Shown here: piece after piece, positions 4,810-49,402 of the stretch
Position numbering within the stretch: the stretch's first letter is position 1
How the letters are laid out: every line of letters starts with the position of its first letter
Virus record (IMG/VR): IMGVR_UViG_2924769383_000001
Location: 2,059 to 66,058 of that record
Source of the DNA: a virus
Taxonomy: Duplodnaviria > Caudoviricetes
Strand: one strand, 5' to 3'
Length of the DNA: 64,000 bases
Program-made: the position numbers and the translations under genes
Notes under the pieces: generated by a model
The model's input: the letters and a program-made list of their open reading frames with translations, nothing else
Told to the model about the DNA's origin: nothing
Databases searched by the model: none

Positions 4810-5006
4810 GCGCGGCGGGAGATAAGCCGCAGGTGGCCCTTGGCGCCACGGTAGTGCTTGAGGGTGTCGTGGTTGGCGTAACCAAGTTCCAAGACAGGCG
4901 CGACACCTACCTTGTGCAGTTCAAGCGTAAGGGGCGCTCATTCGAGGACTGGTTCTTCCTCGAAGACCTTGATGTTTTCACAGAGCAGGATGGGACCGGC
5001 ATATGA
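4806..5006 (+). CDS. Small SH3-like hypothetical protein
   Basis: ATG at 4806 overlapping upstream stop; GVVVG...YLVQF...EDWF, similar to next gene. Confidence 0.6.
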   Translation: MSAAGDKPQVALGATVVLEGVVVGVTKFQDRRDTYLVQFKRKGRSFEDWFFLEDLDVFTEQDGTGI

Positions 5007-5209
5007 TCGGCGGAAGGTGCAGAATTCTACTAGGCGAGTACGACGGCAATGTCGTCGGTAAGCGGACCTATATCGGCGAGGCAGACCGTTACGCGGTTCG
5101 CTACTTGGACGATAGCGGGCCGCAGGAACGCTGGTTCCAGGCGCATGAGATTTCATTCGATGGCCGCGAGGCCGAAGGCAATGTGGTGGATTTTAGGAGG
5201 ACGGCATGA
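5003..5209 (+). CDS. Small SH3-like hypothetical protein, probable paralog of 4806..5006
   Basis: GNVVG...YAVRY...ERWF pattern. Confidence 0.65.
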   Translation: MIGGRCRILLGEYDGNVVGKRTYIGEADRYAVRYLDDSGPQERWFQAHEISFDGREAEGNVVDFRRTA

Positions 5210-6687
5210 ATATGCATGTGAAGGCGGAGCTTAAGCTGGAAGCCGGTAAGTCCTATCGCGGCAAGTCTGGCGCAATTCATCGCGTCGAGACGAACGACAA
5301 TTCTGCGTGGCCGTTCAAGACTGCCGACGAAGACCTTGGCGTTAGCCGCTTTTGGAAGATCGACGGCAGCGGGTACAATACCGATGGCTGGAATAGCCGC
5401 GCAATGATCGGCGAAGATCTTGTCGAACTCGCCCCGCGCTTCTCCGTTGGTGACAAGGTGCGTCGTATCAATTTCGACAACAACCCTGTGATGCGTGTTG
5501 GCACTGAATGGATCGTGTCTGGATTCAAGAAGTATCGCGGTGATGACTACCTGGTCTTTCACGGCGGAAGCGACGGAAACGTCAATAATTTCGAACTTGT
5601 ATCTCCCGCCACCTACACCTCCTGCGCCGCAGCCGAAGTCGACAACCCGGCCGACGAGTATGGTGGCGGGAAGAAGTTCAAGGTTGAAGCAGGAAAATCC
5701 TATATCGGTGACGATGGCAAGACGTATGGGCCGCTAAAGGATTACGATTTCGCCGCTGGCCCCTTCATAATCGAACTCGGCGACGGCAACGTTTGGGATG
5801 CTGACGGCAAGTACGGCAAGGGTAATAACATCCGCGTCAACCTCGTTGCCGTTGCGCCAGCAACCGCAACCACATCGTCGGTAAGCGCGCTCCGCATCCA
5901 GCCAGGGCGCTACTACAAGACGCGCGACGGGCGGAAGGTCGGGCCGATGGAAGCGCGCGATGCCTGCGGCAGTAAATACGTGTGGCAATACGATTATGGA
6001 CGTCGCATCTTCCTGCCGGACGGGACCAACTTCGCCGGCCCTAATTCACCGGAAGACCTCATCGCCGAATGGCAGGACGAGCCAGCCGCAGCCGGGTTCA
6101 AAGTGGGGGATCGGGTAGAGAACGTCATTCCCGGCAACGATTACGACATGCTTGGCACAGTCACGGCACTTAAGGGTGAGGCATATCGAGTTCGGTGGGA
6201 CGGCCATTCAAGCGACGAAGGTCTGTCTTGGCGCCCGAACGAATTGCGCCTTGTTGCGTCAGCAACAATCGGCAATCGACCAACCACCATCGCCGACATC
6301 GTGCGCAAGCACAGCGGCAAGGCAGTCGTCATGCTTATCGAGGACGGCCAGCCGAAGCCTTCAACCCTGCCGTTTGTTCACTCTTCTCAGAGCGCAGCCG
6401 CGACCGAGGCCAGCCGCCTTGCTGGCATCAACAAGGGCAAGGAGTTCGGCGTCTACGTGTGCGTCGACGTGAAGAAGGTGGAAAAGACGTATGAGCACGA
6501 ATGGCAGCGGTTGGCGGCGCGGGGTAGCAAGATACCGGCAATCAAGGCTTACCGTGATGCAGGTGGCAAGCGGCAGACCTTCGTCGCGGCCGAATGGGGC
6601 TTCCCGGCACGTTATGAAGATCACCACGTCATTGGCCTAAAGGAAGCCAAGGACGCCGTAGAGCACTGGCTGGCCACAGCCGCATAA
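5206..6687 (+). CDS. Modular repeat protein with C-terminal ribosomal L7/L12-CTD-like motif
   Basis: Repeats xxxGKSY/GRYY and F(S/K)VGD(K/R)V; KIPAIKAYR...IGLKEAKDAVE near C-terminus. Confidence 0.8.
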   Translation: MNMHVKAELKLEAGKSYRGKSGAIHRVETNDNSAWPFKTADEDLGVSRFWKIDGSGYNTDGWNSRAMIGEDLVELAPRFSVGDKVRRINFDNNPVMRVGTEWIVSGFKKYRGDDYLVFHGGSDGNVNNFELVSPATYTSCAAAEVDNPADEYGGGKKFKVEAGKSYIGDDGKTYGPLKDYDFAAGPFIIELGDGNVWDADGKYGKGNNIRVNLVAVAPATATTSSVSALRIQPGRYYKTRDGRKVGPMEARDACGSKYVWQYDYGRRIFLPDGTNFAGPNSPEDLIAEWQDEPAAAGFKVGDRVENVIPGNDYDMLGTVTALKGEAYRVRWDGHSSDEGLSWRPNELRLVASATIGNRPTTIADIVRKHSGKAVVMLIEDGQPKPSTLPFVHSSQSAAATEASRLAGINKGKEFGVYVCVDVKKVEKTYEHEWQRLAARGSKIPAIKAYRDAGGKRQTFVAAEWGFPARYEDHHVIGLKEAKDAVEHWLATAA

Positions 6688-6748
6688 CCCACCACCACCC
6701 GCACACCAACAACCCTGCTGCACGCTGTGCAGCAGGCAGGAGGGACTT

Positions 6749-6958
6749 ATGTCAACAATCAACGGAACGCTGCGCAACGCGCGCATGATCTTCGACGGTG
6801 ACTCGCGCTGCCCTTGCCTTCGCGGCGAGGTTTACGGCGACACCAAGGGGCGGTTCGCGGACGGAACACCCATCACCACTAGCCGCTTAAAGGCACAGGA
6901 GGATGGCCTTGTCTTCCACACCACCTTTAGCGTCTACAAAGTGGAGTCGTGGGCATGA
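6749..6958 (+). CDS. Conserved small phage protein
   Basis: SD GGAGGG; GEVYGDTKGRFADGTPITTS motif. Confidence 0.75.
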   Translation: MSTINGTLRNARMIFDGDSRCPCLRGEVYGDTKGRFADGTPITTSRLKAQEDGLVFHTTFSVYKVESWA

Positions 6959-7146
6959 CCTATCACGACCAGCACGACCCCGAACTGCACGGCGCACCGC
7001 CCGACACCATCCCGCCAGCCGCGCAGCGCTACATGGCGGTGTGGCTGACTATCGCCATTGTCATCCTGCCGCTTGCCGTGTGGTGGCTGCTATGACCCGC
7101 TCACTGCCACCGGCCTGGTTGCTTGGCCTTATCGTACTGACACTCA

Positions 7147-7971
7147 TTGCAGCATGGAGCATTCACATTGGCTATTAGTCTTTCATCCTTGAAGTCCACC
7201 GTCGAGGTGTCGGCAAGCCGCGCACCAATCGTGCTTGTCTATGGCATCGACGGTATTGGAAAAACCAGTTTCGCCGCCGAATTCCCATCGCCGCTGTATG
7301 TACCCACGGCTGGCGAGCGCGCGCCGTCTGACATCGACATGGCAACGCCCGGCACCATCGAAACCATTGACGATCTCTGGAACGTCATCGGCGAGTTGAT
7401 GGCCGGCGACCATGAATTCAAGACGCTCATTATCGACAGCATGGATGGGCTGGAGCCTATCATGAACGGCGTTACCTGCGCGCGTATTGGAGCGGCTTCG
7501 ATCGATGACAACAGCCAGGGATCCCCCGCAGCCTTCGGGCGAGGTGACGTGGCGTCTGACGTCGAGTGGGCGCAATTTATGGACGCCTGTGACGATCTGG
7601 CTGAGGCTGGCATTTCAGTTGTGCTTGTTGCGCACCCTGAAATCAAGCGCTTCGATAGTCCGGTTACGGATCCTTACGACCGCTATCAAGTGAAGCTCCG
7701 CAAGCGAGCGGCCGCACTTCTTAGGGAGCGTTCCGACATCGTAGCCTTCATGAACACGCGTGTTTCGCTCAAGTCCAAGACTGTCGCCCCCAAGAAGGAC
7801 GTCACACACGCTGAGGGCGGCAAGGAGCGCCAAATCCACCTGACCGAGGCGGCGGGCTTTATGGCCAAGTCGCGTTATCCGACGCCAGACACAATCGTCT
7901 ACAAAAAGGGACAGGGATACGCCGAGTTGGCGAAGTACTTGCCGCAAGGCCAGGAGGCGCCGACCGAATAG
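7147..7971 (+). CDS. Sak4/AAA_24 P-loop ATPase (recombination)
   Basis: YGIDGIGKTSFA Walker A, TLIIDSMD Walker B, VVLVAH, AKSR motifs. Confidence 0.9.
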   Translation: MQHGAFTLAISLSSLKSTVEVSASRAPIVLVYGIDGIGKTSFAAEFPSPLYVPTAGERAPSDIDMATPGTIETIDDLWNVIGELMAGDHEFKTLIIDSMDGLEPIMNGVTCARIGAASIDDNSQGSPAAFGRGDVASDVEWAQFMDACDDLAEAGISVVLVAHPEIKRFDSPVTDPYDRYQVKLRKRAAALLRERSDIVAFMNTRVSLKSKTVAPKKDVTHAEGGKERQIHLTEAAGFMAKSRYPTPDTIVYKKGQGYAELAKYLPQGQEAPTE

Positions 7972-29303: not shown

Positions 29304-30527
29304 ATGGCTGACTCTAATCCGCTTGCCGACAAGATCGGCGAGCTTGGTACTTCGCTTGCCTCCATTAAGGAGCAGGTTGGTAATCTCGGCGCCGACTTCA
29401 CCGCTAAGCTCGCCGCGACCGGCGAAGTTTCCGCCGAACTGAAGGGTAAGGTCGACAAGGCTCTGACCGAGCTTGGTGAAGCCACCACTCGCGTTAGCGA
29501 GCTTGAGAAGCGCGCCGCCCGTGAGCGTGACGTTGTTGAGTCCGAAAGCATGGACCTCGGCGACCACCTCATTGCGTCTGAGGCGTTTAAGGGCACCGAC
29601 AAGTCGGGCGGCTGGCGCGGCGCCATTCGCGTTGGCGTTGAGCGTGCGGACATTACTTCCGGCAACACCACCGTTGGCGCAGGCCGCTCGGCTGGCACGT
29701 CGCTGGTTCCTGGCGCTCGTGTTCCAGGCATTGTCACGCCTCCGAATCGTCAGCTCACCATCCGCGACCTGCTTGCCCCCGGCCAGACCGTATCCAGCTC
29801 GGTTGAGTACGTGAAGGAAACGGGCTACACGAACAACGCCCGCCCTGTGACTGAAGGCACCACCAAGCCTAAGTCGGACCTGACCTTCAACCTGGTCACC
29901 ACTCCGGTGCGCACGATTGCCCATATCTTCAAGGCTTCGCGCCAGATCATGGACGATGCGCCGGCCCTGGCCAGCTACATCAACGCTCGTGGCACGTATG
30001 GGCTGAAGTTTGTCGAAGAGACGCAGCTCCTGAACGGCAATGGCACTGGCCAGAACCTGAACGGCATTCTGCCGCAGGCTACTGCGTTCGCTCCTGCGTT
30101 CAATCCTACGGGCGAAACCGCAATCGATCGCGTGCGCCTCGCACTCCTTCAGGTCATCCTGGCTGAGTACCCGGCGAGCGGTATCGTGCTCAACCCGATT
30201 GATTGGGCGCGCATCGAACTGACCAAGGACAACGAGGGCCGCTACATTGTCGGCAACGCGCAGTCCCCGATCGGTCCGACGCTGTGGGGTCTGCCGGTTG
30301 TGCAGACGCAGGCGATGGCCGCGGGCGAGTTCCTGACTGGTGCGTTCAACCTGGCTGCTCAGATCTTCGACCGCATGGGCGTCGAGGTTCTTCTGTCGAC
30401 CGAGAACTCGGACGACTTCGAGAAGAACATGATGACTCTGCGCATCGAGGAGCGCCTTGCTCTTGCCGTGTATCGTCCAGAGGCGTTCGTGACCGGCGAT
30501 ATCGACACTATTACGACTGCGGCTTAA
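29304..30527 (+). CDS. HK97-fold major capsid protein
   Basis: N-terminal coiled-coil delta domain; TIRDLL, LWGLPVV, RIEERLALAVYRPEAF. Confidence 0.97.
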   Translation: MADSNPLADKIGELGTSLASIKEQVGNLGADFTAKLAATGEVSAELKGKVDKALTELGEATTRVSELEKRAARERDVVESESMDLGDHLIASEAFKGTDKSGGWRGAIRVGVERADITSGNTTVGAGRSAGTSLVPGARVPGIVTPPNRQLTIRDLLAPGQTVSSSVEYVKETGYTNNARPVTEGTTKPKSDLTFNLVTTPVRTIAHIFKASRQIMDDAPALASYINARGTYGLKFVEETQLLNGNGTGQNLNGILPQATAFAPAFNPTGETAIDRVRLALLQVILAEYPASGIVLNPIDWARIELTKDNEGRYIVGNAQSPIGPTLWGLPVVQTQAMAAGEFLTGAFNLAAQIFDRMGVEVLLSTENSDDFEKNMMTLRIEERLALAVYRPEAFVTGDIDTITTAA

Positions 30528-30535
30528 CGGCCAAA

Positions 30536-30557
30536 GGGGCGGCTTTCGGGCCGCCCC
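30536..30557 (+). terminator. Stable hairpin after capsid gene
   Basis: GGGGCGGC-TTTCGG-GCCGCCCC; U-tract weak. Confidence 0.6.
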
Positions 30558-30575: not shown

Positions 30576-30869
30576 ATGAGAATCCAAGCCCTGAAAACCC
30601 TTCTTGACGGCAACGTCACCACAAAGAAGGGCACTGTTTACGAGGAAGACGACTTCAAGGCGCGCGATCTCATTAACATGGGCTACGCGGTGCATTTGCC
30701 TGAGCCAGACGAATCTGTCGCGGCGCCATTGGTTGGCAAAGACAACGTGGATTTTCTTCTGCTCCAAGCTGGTGGCCACGTTGGCTTGGAGAAACCTGCA
30801 TCATCGTCGCAGGAGGACCAAGCGCGGCCGAAGCGGACCTACACGAAGCGCGCGGCAAGCACAAAGTAA
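30576..30869 (+). CDS. Small post-capsid protein (0-frame product)
   Basis: SD GGAG; KGTVYEEDDFKARDLINMGYA resembles small capsid-associated domains. Confidence 0.8.
   Translation: MRIQALKTLLDGNVTTKKGTVYEEDDFKARDLINMGYAVHLPEPDESVAAPLVGKDNVDFLLLQAGGHVGLEKPASSSQEDQARPKRTYTKRAASTK
30749..30791 (+). promoter_or_regulatory. Candidate -1 programmed frameshift signal
   Basis: In-frame G-GAT-TTT (30749-30755), 6-nt spacer, 8-bp stem CTCCAAGC/GCTTGGAG. Confidence 0.7.
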
Positions 30870-31396
30870 TAGTCGTAAACAACGGCTATCGGCTAGCGCC
30901 GTGGGCTGACGTTCTTTACGCCTGTGACTACGACTGGTGGGCACATAATGGCGGTCGGACTGATTTCGCCGGCCTACGAATTGGCGGCGATGTACGTGAC
31001 GGCAAATGGGGCGTTCGCCCCGTTAAGATCGACATGCGCCGGGATGAAATCCTTGTGCATAAGTTCGGGACCATTGGTTGCGGTGGCAATTCGGGGTTCC
31101 AGGCCCTAAACCTTGCCGTCCAATTCGGCAGCCGGAACATAATTCTGGTTGGGTACGACATGCATGACCGAGCCGGTGTCCATTGGCACGGGAAGCATGG
31201 CAGCGGGCTTAATAACCCGAGTCGCGCGAGTTTGGCGCGGTGGCGCGGTGTAATTGACGGCCAAGCGCCGATGCTGGAGCGCATGGGCGTGCGCGTGATT
31301 AACGCGAGTCCAGACAGTGCGCTTACGGCATACCCCAAGATGACATTTAGCGCCGCGCTTGCGGCATGTACGGAGCGCGCCAATGTCGTTGCTTGA
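30755..31396 (+). CDS. Maf/MptE-like (CstII/GT42-type fold) transferase domain, start-less, likely a -1 fusion
   Basis: Frame open from 30704 with no ATG/GTG/TTG before ETCIIVAGGPSA; VNNGYRLAPWADVLYACD, NSGFQALNLAVQFGSRNIILVGYDM. Confidence 0.75.
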   Translation, partial: SSAPSWWPRWLGETCIIVAGGPSAAEADLHEARGKHKVIVVNNGYRLAPWADVLYACDYDWWAHNGGRTDFAGLRIGGDVRDGKWGVRPVKIDMRRDEILVHKFGTIGCGGNSGFQALNLAVQFGSRNIILVGYDMHDRAGVHWHGKHGSGLNNPSRASLARWRGVIDGQAPMLERMGVRVINASPDSALTAYPKMTFSAALAACTERANVVA

Positions 31397-31742
31397 TATT
31401 GCCTTGGTGAAGAAGCACCTCCGCATCGACTTCGATGATGATGACGACACGATTTCCGCCTACCAGGCAGCGGCAGAGACCATCGTAACGGAATATGTTG
31501 ACCGCGCCGTCTATGCCGCTGGCGGCATGCCGGCCACTGGTGACGACGGAACGGCAATTGAGGTTACACCGGCTATTACGGCTGCGATATTGCTCCTTAT
31601 TGGCGACCTTTACGAAAGTCGTGAGGCGGATCCTGAAAGCAAGGGTGATGCTGTGCTGCCGCGTGCGGTCAGGGCGCTGCTTGCGCCGTACCGCGTGTGG
31701 CGCGTGCTAGATGAATGCACTTACGTGGAAGTTACGACGTGA
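31383..31742 (+). CDS. Head-tail connector (HK97 gp6-like)
   Basis: VKKHLRIDFDDDD...AILLLIGDLYESRE...LLAPYR. Confidence 0.92.
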   Translation: MSLLDIALVKKHLRIDFDDDDDTISAYQAAAETIVTEYVDRAVYAAGGMPATGDDGTAIEVTPAITAAILLLIGDLYESREADPESKGDAVLPRAVRALLAPYRVWRVLDECTYVEVTT

Positions 31743-32674
31743 CGATTGCCGAAAAGCGCCACCTCTTCATCCGCGGGATGCATGGCCTTGGCGACAACCT
31801 CCACCAGCGGGCGATCATTCGCCAACTGATGCCGCGCTTCGATGTCTATCTCGAGAGTTCATGGATTGCTCCGTATCATGATTTGATTGCGGGTGGCCTG
31901 AAGGTTCTGCACAAGCGCACCTCACTGCGGACCCAGGCCAAGAACGCCGACCGGGAGCGCAATCTGTTCTGGCGCGGCAGTGTCCCGATCGCACGGCAAA
32001 TGCAGATTTCCTACTCGCCTGACCTGGTGCGCGAGTGCGGTTCTGTCCTTGCCGCAATGTGTCGAACGGCGGATGTGGATTACGCGCGGGCGGATTTTCG
32101 CCTTCCAATTCCGGCAGAGTGGCGCGAGCGAGCCGACAGGCTTATTGACTTTTGGCAGCCAACCAAGCCGATCCTGATTTACAGGCCGCTCAATGAGCGG
32201 ACGGAATGGGGCGGTTGCCAGGCAAGAAATCCAGACTATGACGCTTATGCTTCGCTGTTTGCGTCGATCAGAGATCAGTTCTTCGTCGTGTCAGTTGCTG
32301 ACCTTGTTCCAAAAAAAGAGTGGATGGTCGGCCATCCTATCAAGGCTGATGTCGAATGCCACTCTGGCGAACTGGATTTCGAGACGTTGGTTGCGTTGGC
32401 ATCGCGTTCTGCCATGGTCTACTCCTCGCCGGGCTTTGCCGTGATTCTTGCGCAGGCTGTAGGCACTCCTGTCGCTTGTATATTCGGCGGCTATGAGGAC
32501 TCGACGTCCTTCGCCGGAGGCGCGCGCTATAGCCCGTATCTCGGCATTGACCCTATCAAGCCGTGCCAGTGTTTTAGCCACAAGCATGACTGCCAGAAGG
32601 AAATAGACATTGGCGCCGCAACCGAACTTCTACAATCCTTCGTCACTGCAAATACCGGCCGTCTCGCAGGATAG
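31739..32674 (+). CDS. Glycosyltransferase, GT9 (heptosyltransferase-like)
   Basis: GMHGLGDNL N-terminal motif; LVALASRSAMVYSSPGFAVILAQAVGTP..IFGG. Confidence 0.8.
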   Translation: MTIAEKRHLFIRGMHGLGDNLHQRAIIRQLMPRFDVYLESSWIAPYHDLIAGGLKVLHKRTSLRTQAKNADRERNLFWRGSVPIARQMQISYSPDLVRECGSVLAAMCRTADVDYARADFRLPIPAEWRERADRLIDFWQPTKPILIYRPLNERTEWGGCQARNPDYDAYASLFASIRDQFFVVSVADLVPKKEWMVGHPIKADVECHSGELDFETLVALASRSAMVYSSPGFAVILAQAVGTPVACIFGGYEDSTSFAGGARYSPYLGIDPIKPCQCFSHKHDCQKEIDIGAATELLQSFVTANTGRLAG

Positions 32675-33233
32675 TATTGGCGTGCAGCCAATCGACAAGA
32701 CTGGACTAAATACACGGTTCATGAACCCCGGTGAGTTGGAGGCCGCTGTTGCGTTAGCGCGCCTGGCTAAGCCGAAAGTCGTTGTTGAGTTCGGCGTCAG
32801 CGAGGGCCGCACCGCCAAGGCTTTGCTGCTCAACATTGACACAATAGAGCGCTACGTCGGCATTGACGTGCCGCAAGGATATGTCACAGACAAGGCTGTT
32901 CAGCGGCGGGAGGTGCCGCAACAACCGGCGCACTTCGCATTGGACGACCCGCGCTTCCGGCTTCTGATTGCGCGTCGTGGATCGCATGATTTGGCCACCG
33001 ACGATTTGCCCGAGTGCGACTTCGTGTTCATCGATGGCGATCACGGGCGCGCTGGCGTTACAAAGGATACGCTCCTGGCCACGCGCATCGTTCGTCCGGG
33101 CGGCATGATTGTTTGGCACGACTACCACCACCTCGGCAGCGTCGACGTTAGGGATGTGCTTGATGAGTATTACGACGCGGGCCGACCAATCCAGCACGTG
33201 GAGGGCACATGGCTGGCGTTCATGAGGGTGTAA
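32610..33233 (+). CDS. Class I SAM methyltransferase (Methyltransf_24-like)
   Basis: VVEFGVSEGRT, DFVFIDGDH, GGMIVWHDY. Confidence 0.9.
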   Translation: MAPQPNFYNPSSLQIPAVSQDSIGVQPIDKTGLNTRFMNPGELEAAVALARLAKPKVVVEFGVSEGRTAKALLLNIDTIERYVGIDVPQGYVTDKAVQRREVPQQPAHFALDDPRFRLLIARRGSHDLATDDLPECDFVFIDGDHGRAGVTKDTLLATRIVRPGGMIVWHDYHHLGSVDVRDVLDEYYDAGRPIQHVEGTWLAFMRV

Positions 33234-33463
33234 GCGTGTGGGTTAGGTTTATCGAGCCATACGACTATCGCCTGCCGTCTTCGACTGTGGCGTACAAGCC
33301 GGGTGACTATAATGTCCCGCAACGGTGCGCCACGCTGGCCGTCGCTGCGGGTAAGGCTGTGAGGCTTCGCAAGGACAACAAGAATGAGGAGCCGCAGCCG
33401 TGGCAAGAACCCGCAGTGGCCAACTCAACGCCAAAATTATCTTCCAGCGAAGAGGCGATGTAA
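33209..33463 (+). CDS. Small virion-associated protein
   Basis: VRFIEPYDY...YKPGDYNVPQRCATLAVAAGKA; position among head-completion genes. Confidence 0.65.
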   Translation: MAGVHEGVSVWVRFIEPYDYRLPSSTVAYKPGDYNVPQRCATLAVAAGKAVRLRKDNKNEEPQPWQEPAVANSTPKLSSSEEAM

Positions 33464-33795
33464 CTGACGATTACGGGAATGTTTCCGTTGGTGCAGGTCC
33501 CTTTGAAGATGTAGGCGCGCCGTTCTCGGCCCGCCTCCAGCCGATCTATGGCAGCAGCCAAAATGTGGAGGGTGTCTTCGCTTCCCGCCTGTCCGCCAAG
33601 CAGCCGTACAACCTCATCGTAAGGAACTGCGCCGCTACGCGGGCAGTTCGCACTGATTGGCGCGTTGTGGATGCACGGCAGGCGCAGGATGTGAATGGGG
33701 CAATTCCACGCGTTTTCAACATCAAGACAATTGTTGATCCTGGTGAGGATCGTGCGTGGCTAGAGTTTTTGGTGGTCGAAGGCGAGGCGTCCTAA
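33400..33795 (+). CDS. Head closure / head-tail adaptor
   Basis: SGQLNAKIIFQRR..DDYGN, DWRVVD, FNIKTIVDP. Confidence 0.88.
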   Translation: MARTRSGQLNAKIIFQRRGDVTDDYGNVSVGAGPFEDVGAPFSARLQPIYGSSQNVEGVFASRLSAKQPYNLIVRNCAATRAVRTDWRVVDARQAQDVNGAIPRVFNIKTIVDPGEDRAWLEFLVVEGEAS

Positions 33796-35737: not shown

Positions 35738-35763
35738 CCGCCAGTAACAAATATCAACTTATG

Positions 35764-46049: not shown

Positions 46050-48509
46050 TTGTCAACTTACAGAACCGGCACGGTTTCCGTGACGAATGGCAGCGCTGTG
46101 ATTGCGGGCAGCGGTACGGCGTGGGCTGTCGCGCTTGTTGCGGGAGGCATGTTCTCGAGCGCAGGCATTGCTGTTCCTATAGCGTCCGTCGATAGCGATA
46201 CGCAGATTACACTGGACTATGAGTGGCCAGGTATTACGGCTAGCGGCGCGACTTACAGCATTGCGCTGGAGAATGCAGCCGCAGCTAGTGTTGTCGATCT
46301 AAATACCACCCTTAGCCGAGTGCTTGTCACGCTGTCGCTGGCAGGCATCCATCCGGATGCCTCAGGTACTATTGCGGAGCGCGACGCCATTTCGCTTGGC
46401 GTGGGCGATAAGGGCTTCCTGTTCCTTCATGCCGAGATCGGCGTTGGCTTTGCGTTCTATCGCTGGACGGGTACGGCTTGGGAGGGGCCGTTTGCTGTTC
46501 AGGGTGCGACTGGTCCGCATGGCGATCCAGGCATTATCGGTACATGGCTTGGACCATGGGCCACGGCCACCGCATACGTTGTGAATGACGTCGTTAGCGA
46601 GGATGGCTCTAGCTATATTTGCGTAACGGCGCACACGTCCGGCACGTTCGCCGCCGACCTTGCTGCCGGGAAGTGGGAGATTGTCGCACAGAAGGGCGAT
46701 GTCGGCGCTCCTGGCGGTGTCACGAGTATCGCTGGCCTAACTGGAACCGTGACGGCCGCTGACGCCAGGGACGCACTCGACACTCCGGCCTATGTGGCCG
46801 ATCGCGCCGCCTTGAAAGCGCTCACTGTCGCCAAGGACACACTGGTGTTTTTGAAGGAGGCCAGCCGCGAAGGCTGGTTCCGCTTCAGTTCCAGCAATCT
46901 GTCTAGCCTAGTTTCAGCAGACACCCGGGAGGGCCTTTACATCGCCCCGGCCAGCGACGCGACCGGCGCTTCCGGCGCGTGGATTCGTCAGCGCGATAAC
47001 CTCGATGTGCAGGCAAAATGGTTTGGCCAGACCGGCGACGCTATTGTCGTCACCGGCAACACGTCGATCACGTCAGGTACTGCGGCTCTGACGGTGGCGG
47101 GCGCAGCTTTCGCCACGTCAGACGTCGGCAAGCTTATCATTGTCCCCGGCGCCGGTGCCGCGGGCATCCCTCTTGTAACAACGATCTCAGCACGGACCAG
47201 TGCGACGCAAGTCACTTTGGGTGCCAACGCCGGAACCACTCTTTCGGCTGTATCCAAAACGGTCACTTATGGCACCGACGATGCAACAGCGATCAACAAA
47301 GCCATTCTGGCCCTCCCCACGACCGGTGCCACCTGCTGGCTCAGTGGACAATCAGCCATTGGCTCGGCAATTCAGGTGGGCAACGGTTCCGCTGCCGGGT
47401 CTTCGACGCGGTGGGGAATTCGCCTGACCGGCGTCAGCGTCGGCGGCGGAGGCAACGCCGGCAACGGTCTCCACTGGCTTGGTGCTTATAACACAAGCGT
47501 TATCGTCTCGGTGAACGGCCCGATGAACGGATGGGAGGTCAGCAGCCTTTTCATCGATGGCAAAGACAGCGTTCAGTACGGCTTTCTTGCGCAGAGCGCC
47601 GGGCAGGGCCGGACCGATTTCCTCTACATCCAGAACTGCCGTGTCGCGCATTACGCCACCATCTGCTACGCCACCGGTACTGCCCGCAATTGCGAAATGA
47701 TCCAGGGCAATAACATCACCATCGCCATGGGATCGGCATCTGGCGCAATCGGCATCCTATTCGATGGTAGAACTGATGGCGCGGCCTCAAGTTGTTTCAT
47801 CACGCTGACGACCATTAGAATCTATCCACAATCTGTCGCCGTTGCAAAGCCAATCATTTTCAAGGTCGCCGACACTTGTACCGTCAACGATTTGCTGATC
47901 TTCCACGCAGCGCCTGCCAATGCCAGCACTGTTAACGTTACTTACGACTACAGCGGCAATTCGGTATTCCCTTGCGGCAACATATTGAACGGGGTGGATG
48001 CCGGCTGGAATACTCCGGTAGCCCAACAGTTTGCTAACAACGGAGTTTCGACAGGGGCTTCATCGGCGAACCTCATCAATAATCTGACGGAGTTGAACGG
48101 GTGCAGGTACCCGACCAAGCTCGCTAACGTCACTCTTGATCTGCCACGCAAATATTCAGAAGACGTTGCGCTGACCGGTCAGACTGCCGCAATCGGATTT
48201 ACCACCCTACACACTCCGCAATACGCATCCCGGTACAGGGTGAACTATCTCCTGGCTGTTACCGCCGTAGGCACGGCAGGGACGGTCGATCTGCGCATTC
48301 GGTGGAAGGATCCGAACAACGTGGATAGGACTCAGGTCGTTGGCACAGTAACGTTAACTAACGCAGTTGGCGGGAACCAAATATCTGGTTCCATCTCGGT
48401 GACGACATACCTCCTGGCGGGCACTTATATTGCTTACCAGACCATCCATACGGGTGTCACCGGGAGTCCACAATACTCTCTGGATCTCAGCGTAGAGAGG
48501 CTGAATTAA
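46050..48509 (+). CDS. Tailspike with carbohydrate-binding module and beta-helix depolymerase-like domain
   Basis: YRTGTVSVTNGS anchor; WATATAYVVNDVV..DGSSYIC..AH (CBM5/12-like); TDDATAINKAI (pectate-lyase-like start). Confidence 0.8.
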   Translation: MSTYRTGTVSVTNGSAVIAGSGTAWAVALVAGGMFSSAGIAVPIASVDSDTQITLDYEWPGITASGATYSIALENAAAASVVDLNTTLSRVLVTLSLAGIHPDASGTIAERDAISLGVGDKGFLFLHAEIGVGFAFYRWTGTAWEGPFAVQGATGPHGDPGIIGTWLGPWATATAYVVNDVVSEDGSSYICVTAHTSGTFAADLAAGKWEIVAQKGDVGAPGGVTSIAGLTGTVTAADARDALDTPAYVADRAALKALTVAKDTLVFLKEASREGWFRFSSSNLSSLVSADTREGLYIAPASDATGASGAWIRQRDNLDVQAKWFGQTGDAIVVTGNTSITSGTAALTVAGAAFATSDVGKLIIVPGAGAAGIPLVTTISARTSATQVTLGANAGTTLSAVSKTVTYGTDDATAINKAILALPTTGATCWLSGQSAIGSAIQVGNGSAAGSSTRWGIRLTGVSVGGGGNAGNGLHWLGAYNTSVIVSVNGPMNGWEVSSLFIDGKDSVQYGFLAQSAGQGRTDFLYIQNCRVAHYATICYATGTARNCEMIQGNNITIAMGSASGAIGILFDGRTDGAASSCFITLTTIRIYPQSVAVAKPIIFKVADTCTVNDLLIFHAAPANASTVNVTYDYSGNSVFPCGNILNGVDAGWNTPVAQQFANNGVSTGASSANLINNLTELNGCRYPTKLANVTLDLPRKYSEDVALTGQTAAIGFTTLHTPQYASRYRVNYLLAVTAVGTAGTVDLRIRWKDPNNVDRTQVVGTVTLTNAVGGNQISGSISVTTYLLAGTYIAYQTIHTGVTGSPQYSLDLSVERLN

Positions 48510-49402
48510 GCGATTAGGCCGATTCGCCTGTAATGCTCAAGCATGTCGTCATGCACATAATACGTGTTGTAGTGTATGTTCTGGACGGGTCGGATCTTAT
48601 CTTCCACTCTTTCGAAGGGGCGATAGCCGACATCGGCCATAGCCTCTTTCATGCTAGCGAAATCAGTGATCTCGATCATGACTAGCGGCTGATGCTCTCT
48701 AAGTATGCGCTGCGCGCCAGCGACGGCAGATAATTCGTGACCCTCAACATCGATCTTCAGCCCGACGATGCGTCGGCCATGATGTCTCCACGGAGCATTT
48801 GGCAGTAGCATGTCATCAAGGCGAACCGTCTCAAAGTCAGCCCTCAACACCCTGGCCTCGTATCGGTCAACGAGAGGGATCATTTGCTCACCGACCCGCC
48901 CTGACAGGTAGGTTGAAAACCAACTGGCGAAGGTGGCTCCCCGGATCGTTGTCGTGCCGCCTATAAGATTTCCATTTACCACGAGATTGTAGGCGTCGAC
49001 GGTTCCACTATGATCGCTACAGGCCAAACGAGAGTAGGTGAATTTCGGGTCTATGGCGGCAAGCCGATCAAGTACTGGATGGCAGACGATAAACGGCTCG
49101 AAAGAGTGGATGTGGTTTCGAACGGGTAGATTACGAATTGTGGCTGCGGTGTAGCCGAGGTGCGCGCCGACATCGAGAATGACCGATTCTGTGTCGTTCA
49201 AATGCCGGAACGGCAAGACGTCAATTTCATATATCTCCTTGGAGGCAAGCCAATAGTCGGCGCCTTCAGGATTGGCATCTACCGTCAATTCAGTGATATC
49301 CGCGTAATCTTCTGGCTTCAGTGTCCCCGTGCGGAAACGGTCGAAAAGGCCGTCAACGGCTGACATCATCTCGGTTCTTGCATCTACTAGTGAAATATCC
49401 AT
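48506..49402 (-). CDS. FkbM-family methyltransferase moron
   Basis: ILDVGAHLG, HSFEP, LKIDVEGHEL; convergent with tailspike. Confidence 0.9.
   Translation of the reverse strand: MDISLVDARTEMMSAVDGLFDRFRTGTLKPEDYADITELTVDANPEGADYWLASKEIYEIDVLPFRHLNDTESVILDVGAHLGYTAATIRNLPVRNHIHSFEPFIVCHPVLDRLAAIDPKFTYSRLACSDHSGTVDAYNLVVNGNLIGGTTTIRGATFASWFSTYLSGRVGEQMIPLVDRYEARVLRADFETVRLDDMLLPNAPWRHHGRRIVGLKIDVEGHELSAVAGAQRILREHQPLVMIEITDFASMKEAMADVGYRPFERVEDKIRPVQNIHYNTYYVHDDMLEHYRRIGLIA

Follow-up and report, generated by a model that had tools for sequence, protein, structure and literature searches.

A three-enzyme cassette in an HK97/D3-type head operon as a candidate for virion glycosylation

Introduction

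Why a phage should place enzymes of glycan synthesis between the gene for its capsid and the gene that closes its head is the question raised by a stretch of 64,000 nucleotides of viral DNA, referred to below as the window (positions 2,059 to 66,058 of the IMG/VR record IMGVR_UViG_2924769383_000001). The source record is a 66,058-bp IMG/VR phage with direct terminal repeats, of which the window covers nearly all, and the bacterial genomes that hold the closest copies of its genes (86–94 % identity) belong to Mesorhizobium. Between the capsid and head-closure genes of this phage lie genes for a Maf/CstII-like (DUF115) transferase, a GT9-like glycosyltransferase and an S-adenosylmethionine (SAM)-dependent methyltransferase. 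The answer favoured here is that these enzymes form a late module of the head operon which glycosylates a virion protein, a proposal held tentatively and at a little under an even chance. The narrower claim that the three enzymes build one tailored glycan is strongly supported by synteny, gene fusions and partner swaps in related sequences, while a conserved start-less arrangement indicates that the first enzyme is reached by a programmed −1 frameshift from a small upstream open reading frame (ORF).

The three enzymes

The Maf/CstII-fold (DUF115, MptE-like) transferase occupies an open frame at 30704..31396 (+), in the −1 frame of the small ORF that follows the capsid gene. The motifs AGGPS (approximately 30806–30820) and GGNSGFQALNLAVQFGSRNIILVGYD (approximately 31082–31159) share this one frame, which matches phrog_4603 ('alpha-2,3-sialyltransferase') with an E value of 1e-45. 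The Pfam family MptE-like/DUF115 (PF01973) reached 22.4 bits, under its gathering cut-off of 34.6, with only the C-terminal NSG...GYD segment aligned; for many homologues of 50 % identity, a precomputed match to PF01973 is on record. In fold comparison, for which a 55 %-identical homologue was modelled rather than the window protein, the enzyme matched the central catalytic domain of the Maf fold as well as the GT42 fold of CstII and Cst-I with its N-terminal nucleotide-binding loop. The phage core of about 200 amino acids (aa) aligns solely to the central part of the 632-residue Maf chain, and the invariant His of HWHG and the Asp of GYD are candidate catalytic residues only. Sequence-only searches against solved structures returned chance hits alone (single-sequence searches for the three enzymes, profile searches for the Maf-like and GT-B enzymes), and fold comparison is the sole source of informative structural evidence. 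The frame is open for 230 codons and keeps all invariant residues of the family, and its ratio of non-synonymous to synonymous substitution rates (dN/dS) against relatives of 95 %, 75 % and 73 % identity is 0.07–0.11. Such strong purifying selection argues that the enzyme is expressed in this lineage. The best match in the phage collection (40 % identity; HQ632857 / NC_020840, 32135–32779) lies in Tetraselmis viridis virus S20, a 39-kb record deposited as a green-alga virus, the gene content of which is phage-like.

The second enzyme is a GT-B glycosyltransferase of GT9 fold (31739..32674 (+); phrog_6804), with an ORF length of 311–319 aa; the GTG start at 31739, which gives 311 codons, agrees with a public gene call (P0001). 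In fold comparison it scored 19.5 against a Veillonella GT9 protein (3tov), 19.2 against TibC, 17.6 against WaaF and 16.4 against WaaC, while the next GT-B families scored 11.6 or less, the fold being nearest to GT9 structures. The Pfam family Glyco_transf_9 (PF01075) was not matched by the window enzyme, nor was any Pfam family at E ≤ 0.01, and PF01075 is passed by a different partner enzyme in 8 related loci (36.3 bits versus a cut-off of 22). The model aligns to TibC from residue 89 onwards, and the N-terminal beta-barrel of TibC (residues 1–97) is absent. A Cys/His cluster is conserved (C160, C276, C278, H281, H283 and C285), with a confidently modelled loop (271–290) before the last helix; judging from the model, it may form a metal site comparable in position to the iron finger of TibC (Cys339, 342, 358 and 370).

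The third enzyme is a class I SAM methyltransferase of the Methyltransf_24 family (32610..33233 (+); 207 aa), which Pfam recognized over the full profile with 46.2 bits against a cut-off of 26.3. It starts at TTG 32610 or GTG 32682, the Atlas record beginning at residue 25, and its translation contains the motifs VVEFGVSEG and FIDGDH, including a glycine-rich SAM-binding motif. Its nearest Atlas clusters are almost all viral Methyltransf_24 proteins, some of which also match CmcI, TylF or Methyltransf_3, which are families of sugar or small-molecule O-methyltransferases. A tblastn search of the phage collection with the window methyltransferase gave no match, because D3-type phages use another methyltransferase family.

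The original prediction had named these motifs and families and had called the enzymes Maf/CstII-like, GT9-like and SAM-dependent. The elements it named lie where it had placed them, and all three calls hold, the first two through fold comparison and the third through Pfam. The structure-based search proposed alongside it, run on the Maf-like enzyme by way of its homologue and on the GT-B enzyme, found glycosyltransferase folds.

Conservation of the cassette as a unit

The three genes are found together in other phages and prophages. In Pseudomonas phage D3, the head operon runs from the capsid gene through orf6.5 (the small ORF), orf7 (DUF115), the adaptor, head closure and a KilA-N gene to orf12 (GT9-like) and orf13 (methyltransferase), and in the Pseudomonas phage PAJU2 and the Klebsiella jumbo phage Eowyn the three genes stand side by side. 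Among 25 loci found in bacterial genomes with a profile of the GT-B enzyme, a DUF115 gene accompanied it in 22 and a methyltransferase gene in 20, mostly contiguously and directly after the capsid gene. The hosts of these loci are alpha-, beta- and gammaproteobacteria, including Bradyrhizobium, Achromobacter, Bordetella, Solimonas, Phenylobacterium and Thermomonas. Fusions join the same partners: one metagenomic protein of 554 aa (P0242) comprises the small domain, DUF115 and the GT-B enzyme in a single chain, and another of 775 aa (P0243) comprises DUF115, the GT-B enzyme and Methyltransf_24. There are also further long forms, in which DUF115 is fused to uncharacterized extensions of 175–320 aa.

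The partners of the DUF115 enzyme can also be exchanged. The methyltransferase of D3, PAJU2 and Eowyn belongs to Methyltransf_23 but has the same place and size as the Methyltransf_24 enzyme of the window, a non-orthologous replacement which shows that selection acts on methylation as such. Among 89 viral contigs identified with a DUF115 profile, the gene usually lies just after the capsid gene and the small ORF, and the slot behind it is variable. This slot holds a PmgQ-type glycosyltransferase (phrog_1962) in 27 loci, the GT9-like enzyme with the methyltransferase in about 17 (the GT9-like gene being found in 21), a GT8-like protein in 17, a hexapeptide acyltransferase in 10, an enzyme that passes the Pfam GT9 profile in 8 and an FkbM methyltransferase in 6. 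The modular make-up, with DUF115 as the constant member, is characteristic of a locus for building and tailoring glycans.

One variant is found in coliphage P1 (positions 4838–7493 of its locus, L200), which carries pmgN (small), pmgO and pmgP (DUF115 paralogues), ppp and pmgQ (phrog_1962). Since pmgO and pmgP encode DUF115 proteins and pmgQ a phrog_1962 protein, the pmgN–pmgQ operon looks like a variant of the cassette; it lies apart from the capsid gene and is driven by late promoters and by promoters under the control of C1. In proteobacterial phages the cassette is widespread, with over 560 matches in viral contigs and some 880 clusters of proteins at 90 % identity; of phages whose capsids are closely related, some have it and others lack it. 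In an order-level sample of 301 genomes, it was found in the seed genome alone.

A start-less gene and a putative −1 frameshift

The first ATG, GTG or TTG of the Maf-like frame is at 31034, and the conserved N-terminal strand and the GPS loop lie far upstream of it. The same −1 arrangement relative to the small post-capsid ORF is found in five close relatives, in which conservation of the −1 frame peptide begins at about PF.GAP.WWPRWLGETC. Among the 89 viral contigs, 41 distinct loci, the window and 40 others, have a DUF115 frame without a plausibly placed canonical start, and most of these are in the −1 frame of the small ORF. A CCC-T sequence lies approximately 18–29 codons (mostly 20–24) upstream of the GPS motif in 31 of the 41 start-less loci, read in the zero frame as xxC CCT followed by TTN, TCN or AYN; canonical X_XXY_YYZ heptamers are present in 24 of the 41. 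Background frequencies, taken from the capsid genes of these loci, are 0.0007 per codon for such heptamers and 0.0011 per codon for C_CCT, and CCC and CCT account for 20 % and 9 % of proline codons, respectively. The excess of slip sites over background, together with the rarity of CCC and CCT, places the constraint on the nucleotide sequence, as a slip site would require. The loci are related, so that these counts are not independent events; at 45–60 % protein identity, however, synonymous sites are saturated.

In the window itself, the putative slip site is G_GAT_TTT (30749..30755 (+)), at the position where relatives have C_CCT_TTN, C_CCT_TCN, C_CCT_AYN or A_AAC_CCT; the 95 % relative has C_CCT_TTT. 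The window site is a degenerate, non-canonical heptamer in which re-pairing is possible only for U_UUU (Phe tRNA). Six nucleotides past it, a 13-bp hairpin (30762..30791 (+); minimum free energy −16.9 kcal/mol, z −1.9) is a candidate frameshift stimulator, the corresponding hairpin in the closest relative, which has the canonical slip site, being of 10 bp. Across 27 relatives, 66 % of the cells of the window helix can pair, compared with 24–41 % in slid controls, and the covariation score of the helix was reached by 9 of 500 shuffles; both results lend it modest support. RNAalifold found no family-wide consensus structure after the slip site, and the mean z of the downstream folds was −0.75.

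Not every relative shares this arrangement. In some, the enzyme has an ATG of its own precisely where the conserved core begins, as a rule with the adaptor gene Ad1 in place of the small ORF as the preceding gene. In phage D3 (L001, 5813–6409), the annotated start of orf7 at 5951 removes the conserved N-terminus of DUF115, to which homology extends from 5864, within orf6.5 and in the −1 frame. D3-like phages conserve a GTG or TTG 22 codons upstream (5813 in D3) and a C_CCA_AAG heptamer 14 codons upstream, so that either a start codon or a frameshift is a possible route in phages of this type.

The arrangement resembles the G/GT frameshifts of tail chaperone genes in its overlapping start-less −1 ORF, in a conserved slip site at a fixed place and in the shared N-terminus of the two products. 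It differs from them in that the predicted extension is an enzyme instead of a chaperone domain, and in that the commonest motif of the cassette loci is C_CCT followed by TTN, TCN or AYN, the window site being degenerate.

The head operon and the flanking small ORFs

The plus strand from approximately 24.9 to 40 kb carries a standard HK97/D3-type late operon with terminase, portal, protease, capsid, connector, tail and tape measure genes. The HK97-type major capsid protein (29304..30527 (+); Pfam Phage_capsid, E 4e-61), the gene of which is 77 % identical in nucleotides to the capsid gene of Sinorhizobium phage NV1.1.1, is the upstream neighbour of the cassette and a candidate glycan acceptor. 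The gp6-like head–tail adaptor Ad1 (31383..31742 (+); Pfam Phage_connect_1, E 1e-10; phrog_40, E 4e-27) is encoded between the first two enzymes, and a head closure or head completion protein (33400..33795 (+); Pfam Phage_HCP, E 2e-9) marks the downstream boundary. The likely ATG of Ad1 (31383) overlaps the end of the Maf-like gene, whose stop codon is at 31394–31396; the GTG of the GT-B gene is inside the Ad1 stop codon, shared as GTGA; and the methyltransferase gene overlaps or abuts the GT-B gene (by up to 65 nt). Between 23.0 and 37.5 kb, promoter-like and terminator-like sites did not exceed shuffled expectation, with no internal promoter or terminator detected in the cassette, and the first convincing terminator is at 35763, after the major tail gene. 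The gene overlaps and the absence of internal signals show that the enzymes are embedded and translationally packed in the head operon, in agreement with the late and translationally coupled expression originally proposed for them. Long out-of-frame overlaps recur across the head operon.

The small post-capsid ORF (30576..30869 (+); 97 codons in the zero frame) matches phrog_2616 and phrog_5463 over residues 1–47 and encodes a conserved domain of approximately 45 aa followed by a disordered basic tail. The domain was modelled with confidence as small and beta-rich with one helix, and searches with it gave no informative family or fold match. The cassette-less phage NV1.1.1 has a homologous ORF of 57 codons after its capsid gene, and similar ORFs occur in many other cassette-less relatives, which makes the small ORF a head-operon gene in its own right. 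Five proteins (P0129–P0131, P0134 and P0153) contain its domain and the Maf-like enzyme as an in-frame fusion, and we infer that the domain docks on a head component.

At the other end of the cassette, a second small ORF (33209..33463 (+); probable start GTG 33236), likewise a head-operon gene, matches phrog_29233 (E 4e-10, residues 11–61) and precedes the head-closure gene in relatives both with and without the GT-B enzyme and methyltransferase. The head-closure start lies within the region encoding its disordered tail, with an overlap of 64 nt. The two small ORFs had been described as similar to each other, a description that has to be withdrawn: BLASTP detected no similarity (E 9.6), they belong to separate PHROG families, and their homology was rejected.

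Proposed virion glycosylation and its alternatives

The folds, the embedding in the operon, the three-gene unit with its fusions, the start-less −1 arrangement with its conserved slip sites and the purifying selection are observations, from which we infer an acceptor, donors and an order of steps as follows. A fraction of the ribosomes translating the small post-capsid gene would shift to the −1 frame and produce a fusion of the small domain with the Maf-like enzyme. This enzyme would attach the first sugar to a protein of the particle, either the capsid protein or a head or tail protein contacted by the small domain, and the fusion could keep part of the enzyme pool bound to the substrate or to the particle under assembly. 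The GT9-like enzyme would then add a second sugar, possibly heptose from host ADP-heptose, after which the SAM methyltransferase would O-methylate the glycan. A virion acceptor is favoured by the position of the genes between capsid and connector, by the frameshift or fusion to a head-operon protein and by the timing of expression; it is further favoured because proteins are the substrates of both Maf and TibC, the closest relatives in structure, and because the genes appear silent in lysogens by their position, as they do through C1 repression in P1. The presence or absence of the cassette in otherwise similar phages and the non-essential nature of its P1 homologues fit an accessory role in tailoring the particle, not a role in assembly. 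A further point in favour comes from PAJU2, where the homologue ORF010 was labelled 'structural protein' by its depositors.

Were virion glycosylation confirmed, it would bear on the recognition of phages by immune systems and by bacterial surface sensors, on particle stability and on the design of therapeutic phages. It would provide a function for long-standing 'orf' and 'pmg' genes of tractable phages such as D3 and, for the variant, P1. With the frameshift, phage head operons would gain a hitherto undescribed case of conserved recoding, in which a head-operon protein is extended by an enzyme.

Several points weigh against a virion acceptor or are at best neutral towards it. CstII and WaaC/WaaF act on lipooligosaccharide (LOS), and the Eowyn and P1 modules do not lie beside capsid genes. 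A Ser/Thr-containing C-terminal tail of the capsid protein was considered as a marker of the acceptor and dropped, since it is found in cassette-bearing capsids and in most cassette-less relatives alike (79 loci). In P1, pmgO, pmgP and pmgQ are non-essential (PMC10695390), and PmgO goes unnamed among the virion proteins discussed in the main text of a proteomic study of P1 particles (PMC9024508).

Some of these points lead to the most serious competitor, raised already with the original prediction, which is nevertheless unlikely: the enzymes would remodel the host envelope during lytic growth, adding sugars and methyl groups to the nascent core of lipopolysaccharide (LPS) or LOS at the cytoplasmic face, with the site in the operon providing timing only, and the benefit might be, for example, that progeny no longer adsorb to debris or that superinfection is blocked. 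CstII-type and GT9 enzymes belong to the classical machinery of the LOS/LPS core, and both folds match; ADP-heptose is made by all five host genomes surveyed; and the dispensability of the P1 genes in the laboratory, their promoters and location, and the place of the Eowyn trio outside the head operon would all be in keeping with such a role. However, LPS made late is slow to reach the surface and cannot replace existing receptors, and the genes, which have no promoter of their own here and are C1-repressed in P1, are apparently silent in lysogens, unlike known conversion genes. Nor does envelope remodelling explain why a frameshift or fusion that links the enzyme to a head-operon protein should be conserved, or why dozens of phages prefer the site right after the capsid gene. 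A non-virion target might also be a protein of the host (flagellin, pilin and defence proteins being examples), a non-structural protein of the phage, or a small molecule, but the cassette keeps its place beside the capsid gene across hosts of very different surfaces, which speaks against any of these. Maf enzymes do modify flagellin and TibC an adhesin (PMC4358343), and the omission of PmgO from the virion proteins named in the P1 main text would suit such a target, but the phage enzymes lack the flanking Maf domains and the N-terminal TibC barrel that are implicated in substrate binding, and a non-virion target is judged somewhat less probable again than envelope remodelling.

The remaining alternatives concern what the individual enzymes do. 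The DUF115 protein might act as an MptE/TPK-like pyrophosphokinase, or as some other enzyme that depends on nucleotides, and supply the GT-B enzyme and methyltransferase with a precursor, which appears improbable. Slightly less credit still is given to the idea that the Maf-like gene of the window is an untranslated, start-less remnant with its slip site decayed to GGATTTT, so that the GT-B enzyme and methyltransferase alone would be active. The want of an ATG, GTG or TTG before 31034 and the non-canonical heptamer would be accounted for in this way, but not the intact 230-codon frame with all its invariant residues and low dN/dS, and the U_UUU is still slippery and followed by a hairpin longer than that of the closest relative. 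Finally, glycosylation and methylation of phage DNA around packaging is scarcely credible: the PHROG match of the methyltransferase is labelled 'DNA methyltransferase' and some GT-B enzymes glucosylate phage DNA (T4), yet the GT-B enzyme is specifically GT9-like, the methyltransferase belongs to Methyltransf_24 with CmcI- and TylF-like neighbours and shows by eye no DPPY/NPPY-type motif, and no hydroxymethyl-pyrimidine pathway came to light when ten further large ORFs of the window were scanned with Pfam.

Sugar donors

For virion glycosylation as proposed above, the phage would need activated sugars. The same Pfam scans of ten ORFs found no sugar-nucleotide synthesis genes, revealing replication genes and one FkbM methyltransferase instead, so that the donors presumably come from the host. 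Five bacterial genomes with prophages containing the GT-B and Maf-like genes were surveyed for donors, all of them hosts other than that of the window phage; the methyltransferase was also detected in four of the five prophages, including all three in hosts without NeuB. An ADP-heptose synthase (rfaE domain II, over the cut-off) was present in all five genomes, while a NeuB-type nonulosonic acid synthase was present in two. This makes pseudaminic, legionaminic or sialic acid unlikely as the general donor of the Maf-like enzyme. The interpretation first offered thus gains one part, a three-enzyme pathway to a single glycan, through synteny, fusions and swaps, and is weakened in another, the nonulosonic-acid donor, by the absence of NeuB from three of the five hosts. 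By elimination, the cytidine monophosphate (CMP) derivative of 3-deoxy-D-manno-octulosonic acid (Kdo), universal in the surveyed hosts, would be a candidate donor.

A broader and decidedly speculative proposal, improbable in its full form, follows the same lines. Many Gram-negative phages, including D3 and P1, would cover a virion protein with a short glycan that ends in a methyl cap and is similar to the inner core of LPS, the Maf-fold enzyme adding an ulosonic acid, for instance Kdo, and the GT9-fold enzyme heptose, from the universal host precursors CMP-Kdo and ADP-heptose, and the priming enzyme would reach the assembling head fused, through frameshifting, to a small protein of the head operon.

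Relation to known systems

Decoration of capsid and tail proteins has been proposed or demonstrated for glycosyltransferases of actinobacteriophages, which are accessory and non-essential; to our knowledge, these are the only phages in which virion glycosylation by phage-encoded enzymes has been demonstrated, and this glycosylation is reportedly the subject of Freeman et al. 2023. The present cassette, which is known from sequence alone, differs from that system in its enzyme families, its Gram-negative hosts, its dedicated methyltransferase and its frameshift link, and virion glycosylation by it would be a distinct Gram-negative-phage variant of the known actinobacteriophage kind.

Compared with the Maf flagellin glycosyltransferases (Magnetospirillum Maf, PDB 5mu5), which have approximately 630 aa, the phage enzyme of about 200 aa lacks the flanking N- and C-terminal domains and is predicted to be made by frameshift or fusion to a small head-operon domain. 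The donors of Maf enzymes are CMP-pseudaminic and CMP-legionaminic acid, whereas three of the five cassette-bearing hosts have no NeuB. The GT-B enzyme is set apart from WaaC, WaaF and TibC (the BAHT family) by the missing Pfam Glyco_transf_9 match and, from TibC, by the missing beta-barrel.

The module of D3 is homologous, with the small ORF, DUF115, GT9-like enzyme and methyltransferase in the head operon, although its methyltransferase is of the Methyltransf_23 family. That of P1 is also homologous, comprising the small ORF, two DUF115 paralogues and PmgQ, but it is not beside the capsid gene and has annotated starts. Some database records already bear the labels 'alpha-2,3-sialyltransferase', 'GT9' and 'methyltransferase', and full-text searches of the literature brought up no study of what the module does. 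What is new here is the three-gene unit with its fusions, the variable enzyme slot, the link to the pmg genes of P1, the conserved recoding signal and the constraint on donors.

Other features of the window

The capsid stop codon is followed immediately by a GC-rich hairpin of 8 bp (GGGGCGGC / GCCGCCCC, 30536–30557) that has no T-run; it may act as an attenuator or as an mRNA-stabilizing element that sets the ratio of capsid to downstream products. The FkbM-family methyltransferase gene of the window (48506–49402 (−); Pfam E 4e-14) is a second glycan-type methyltransferase gene of this phage and stands tail-to-tail with a tailspike-like ORF (46050–48509).

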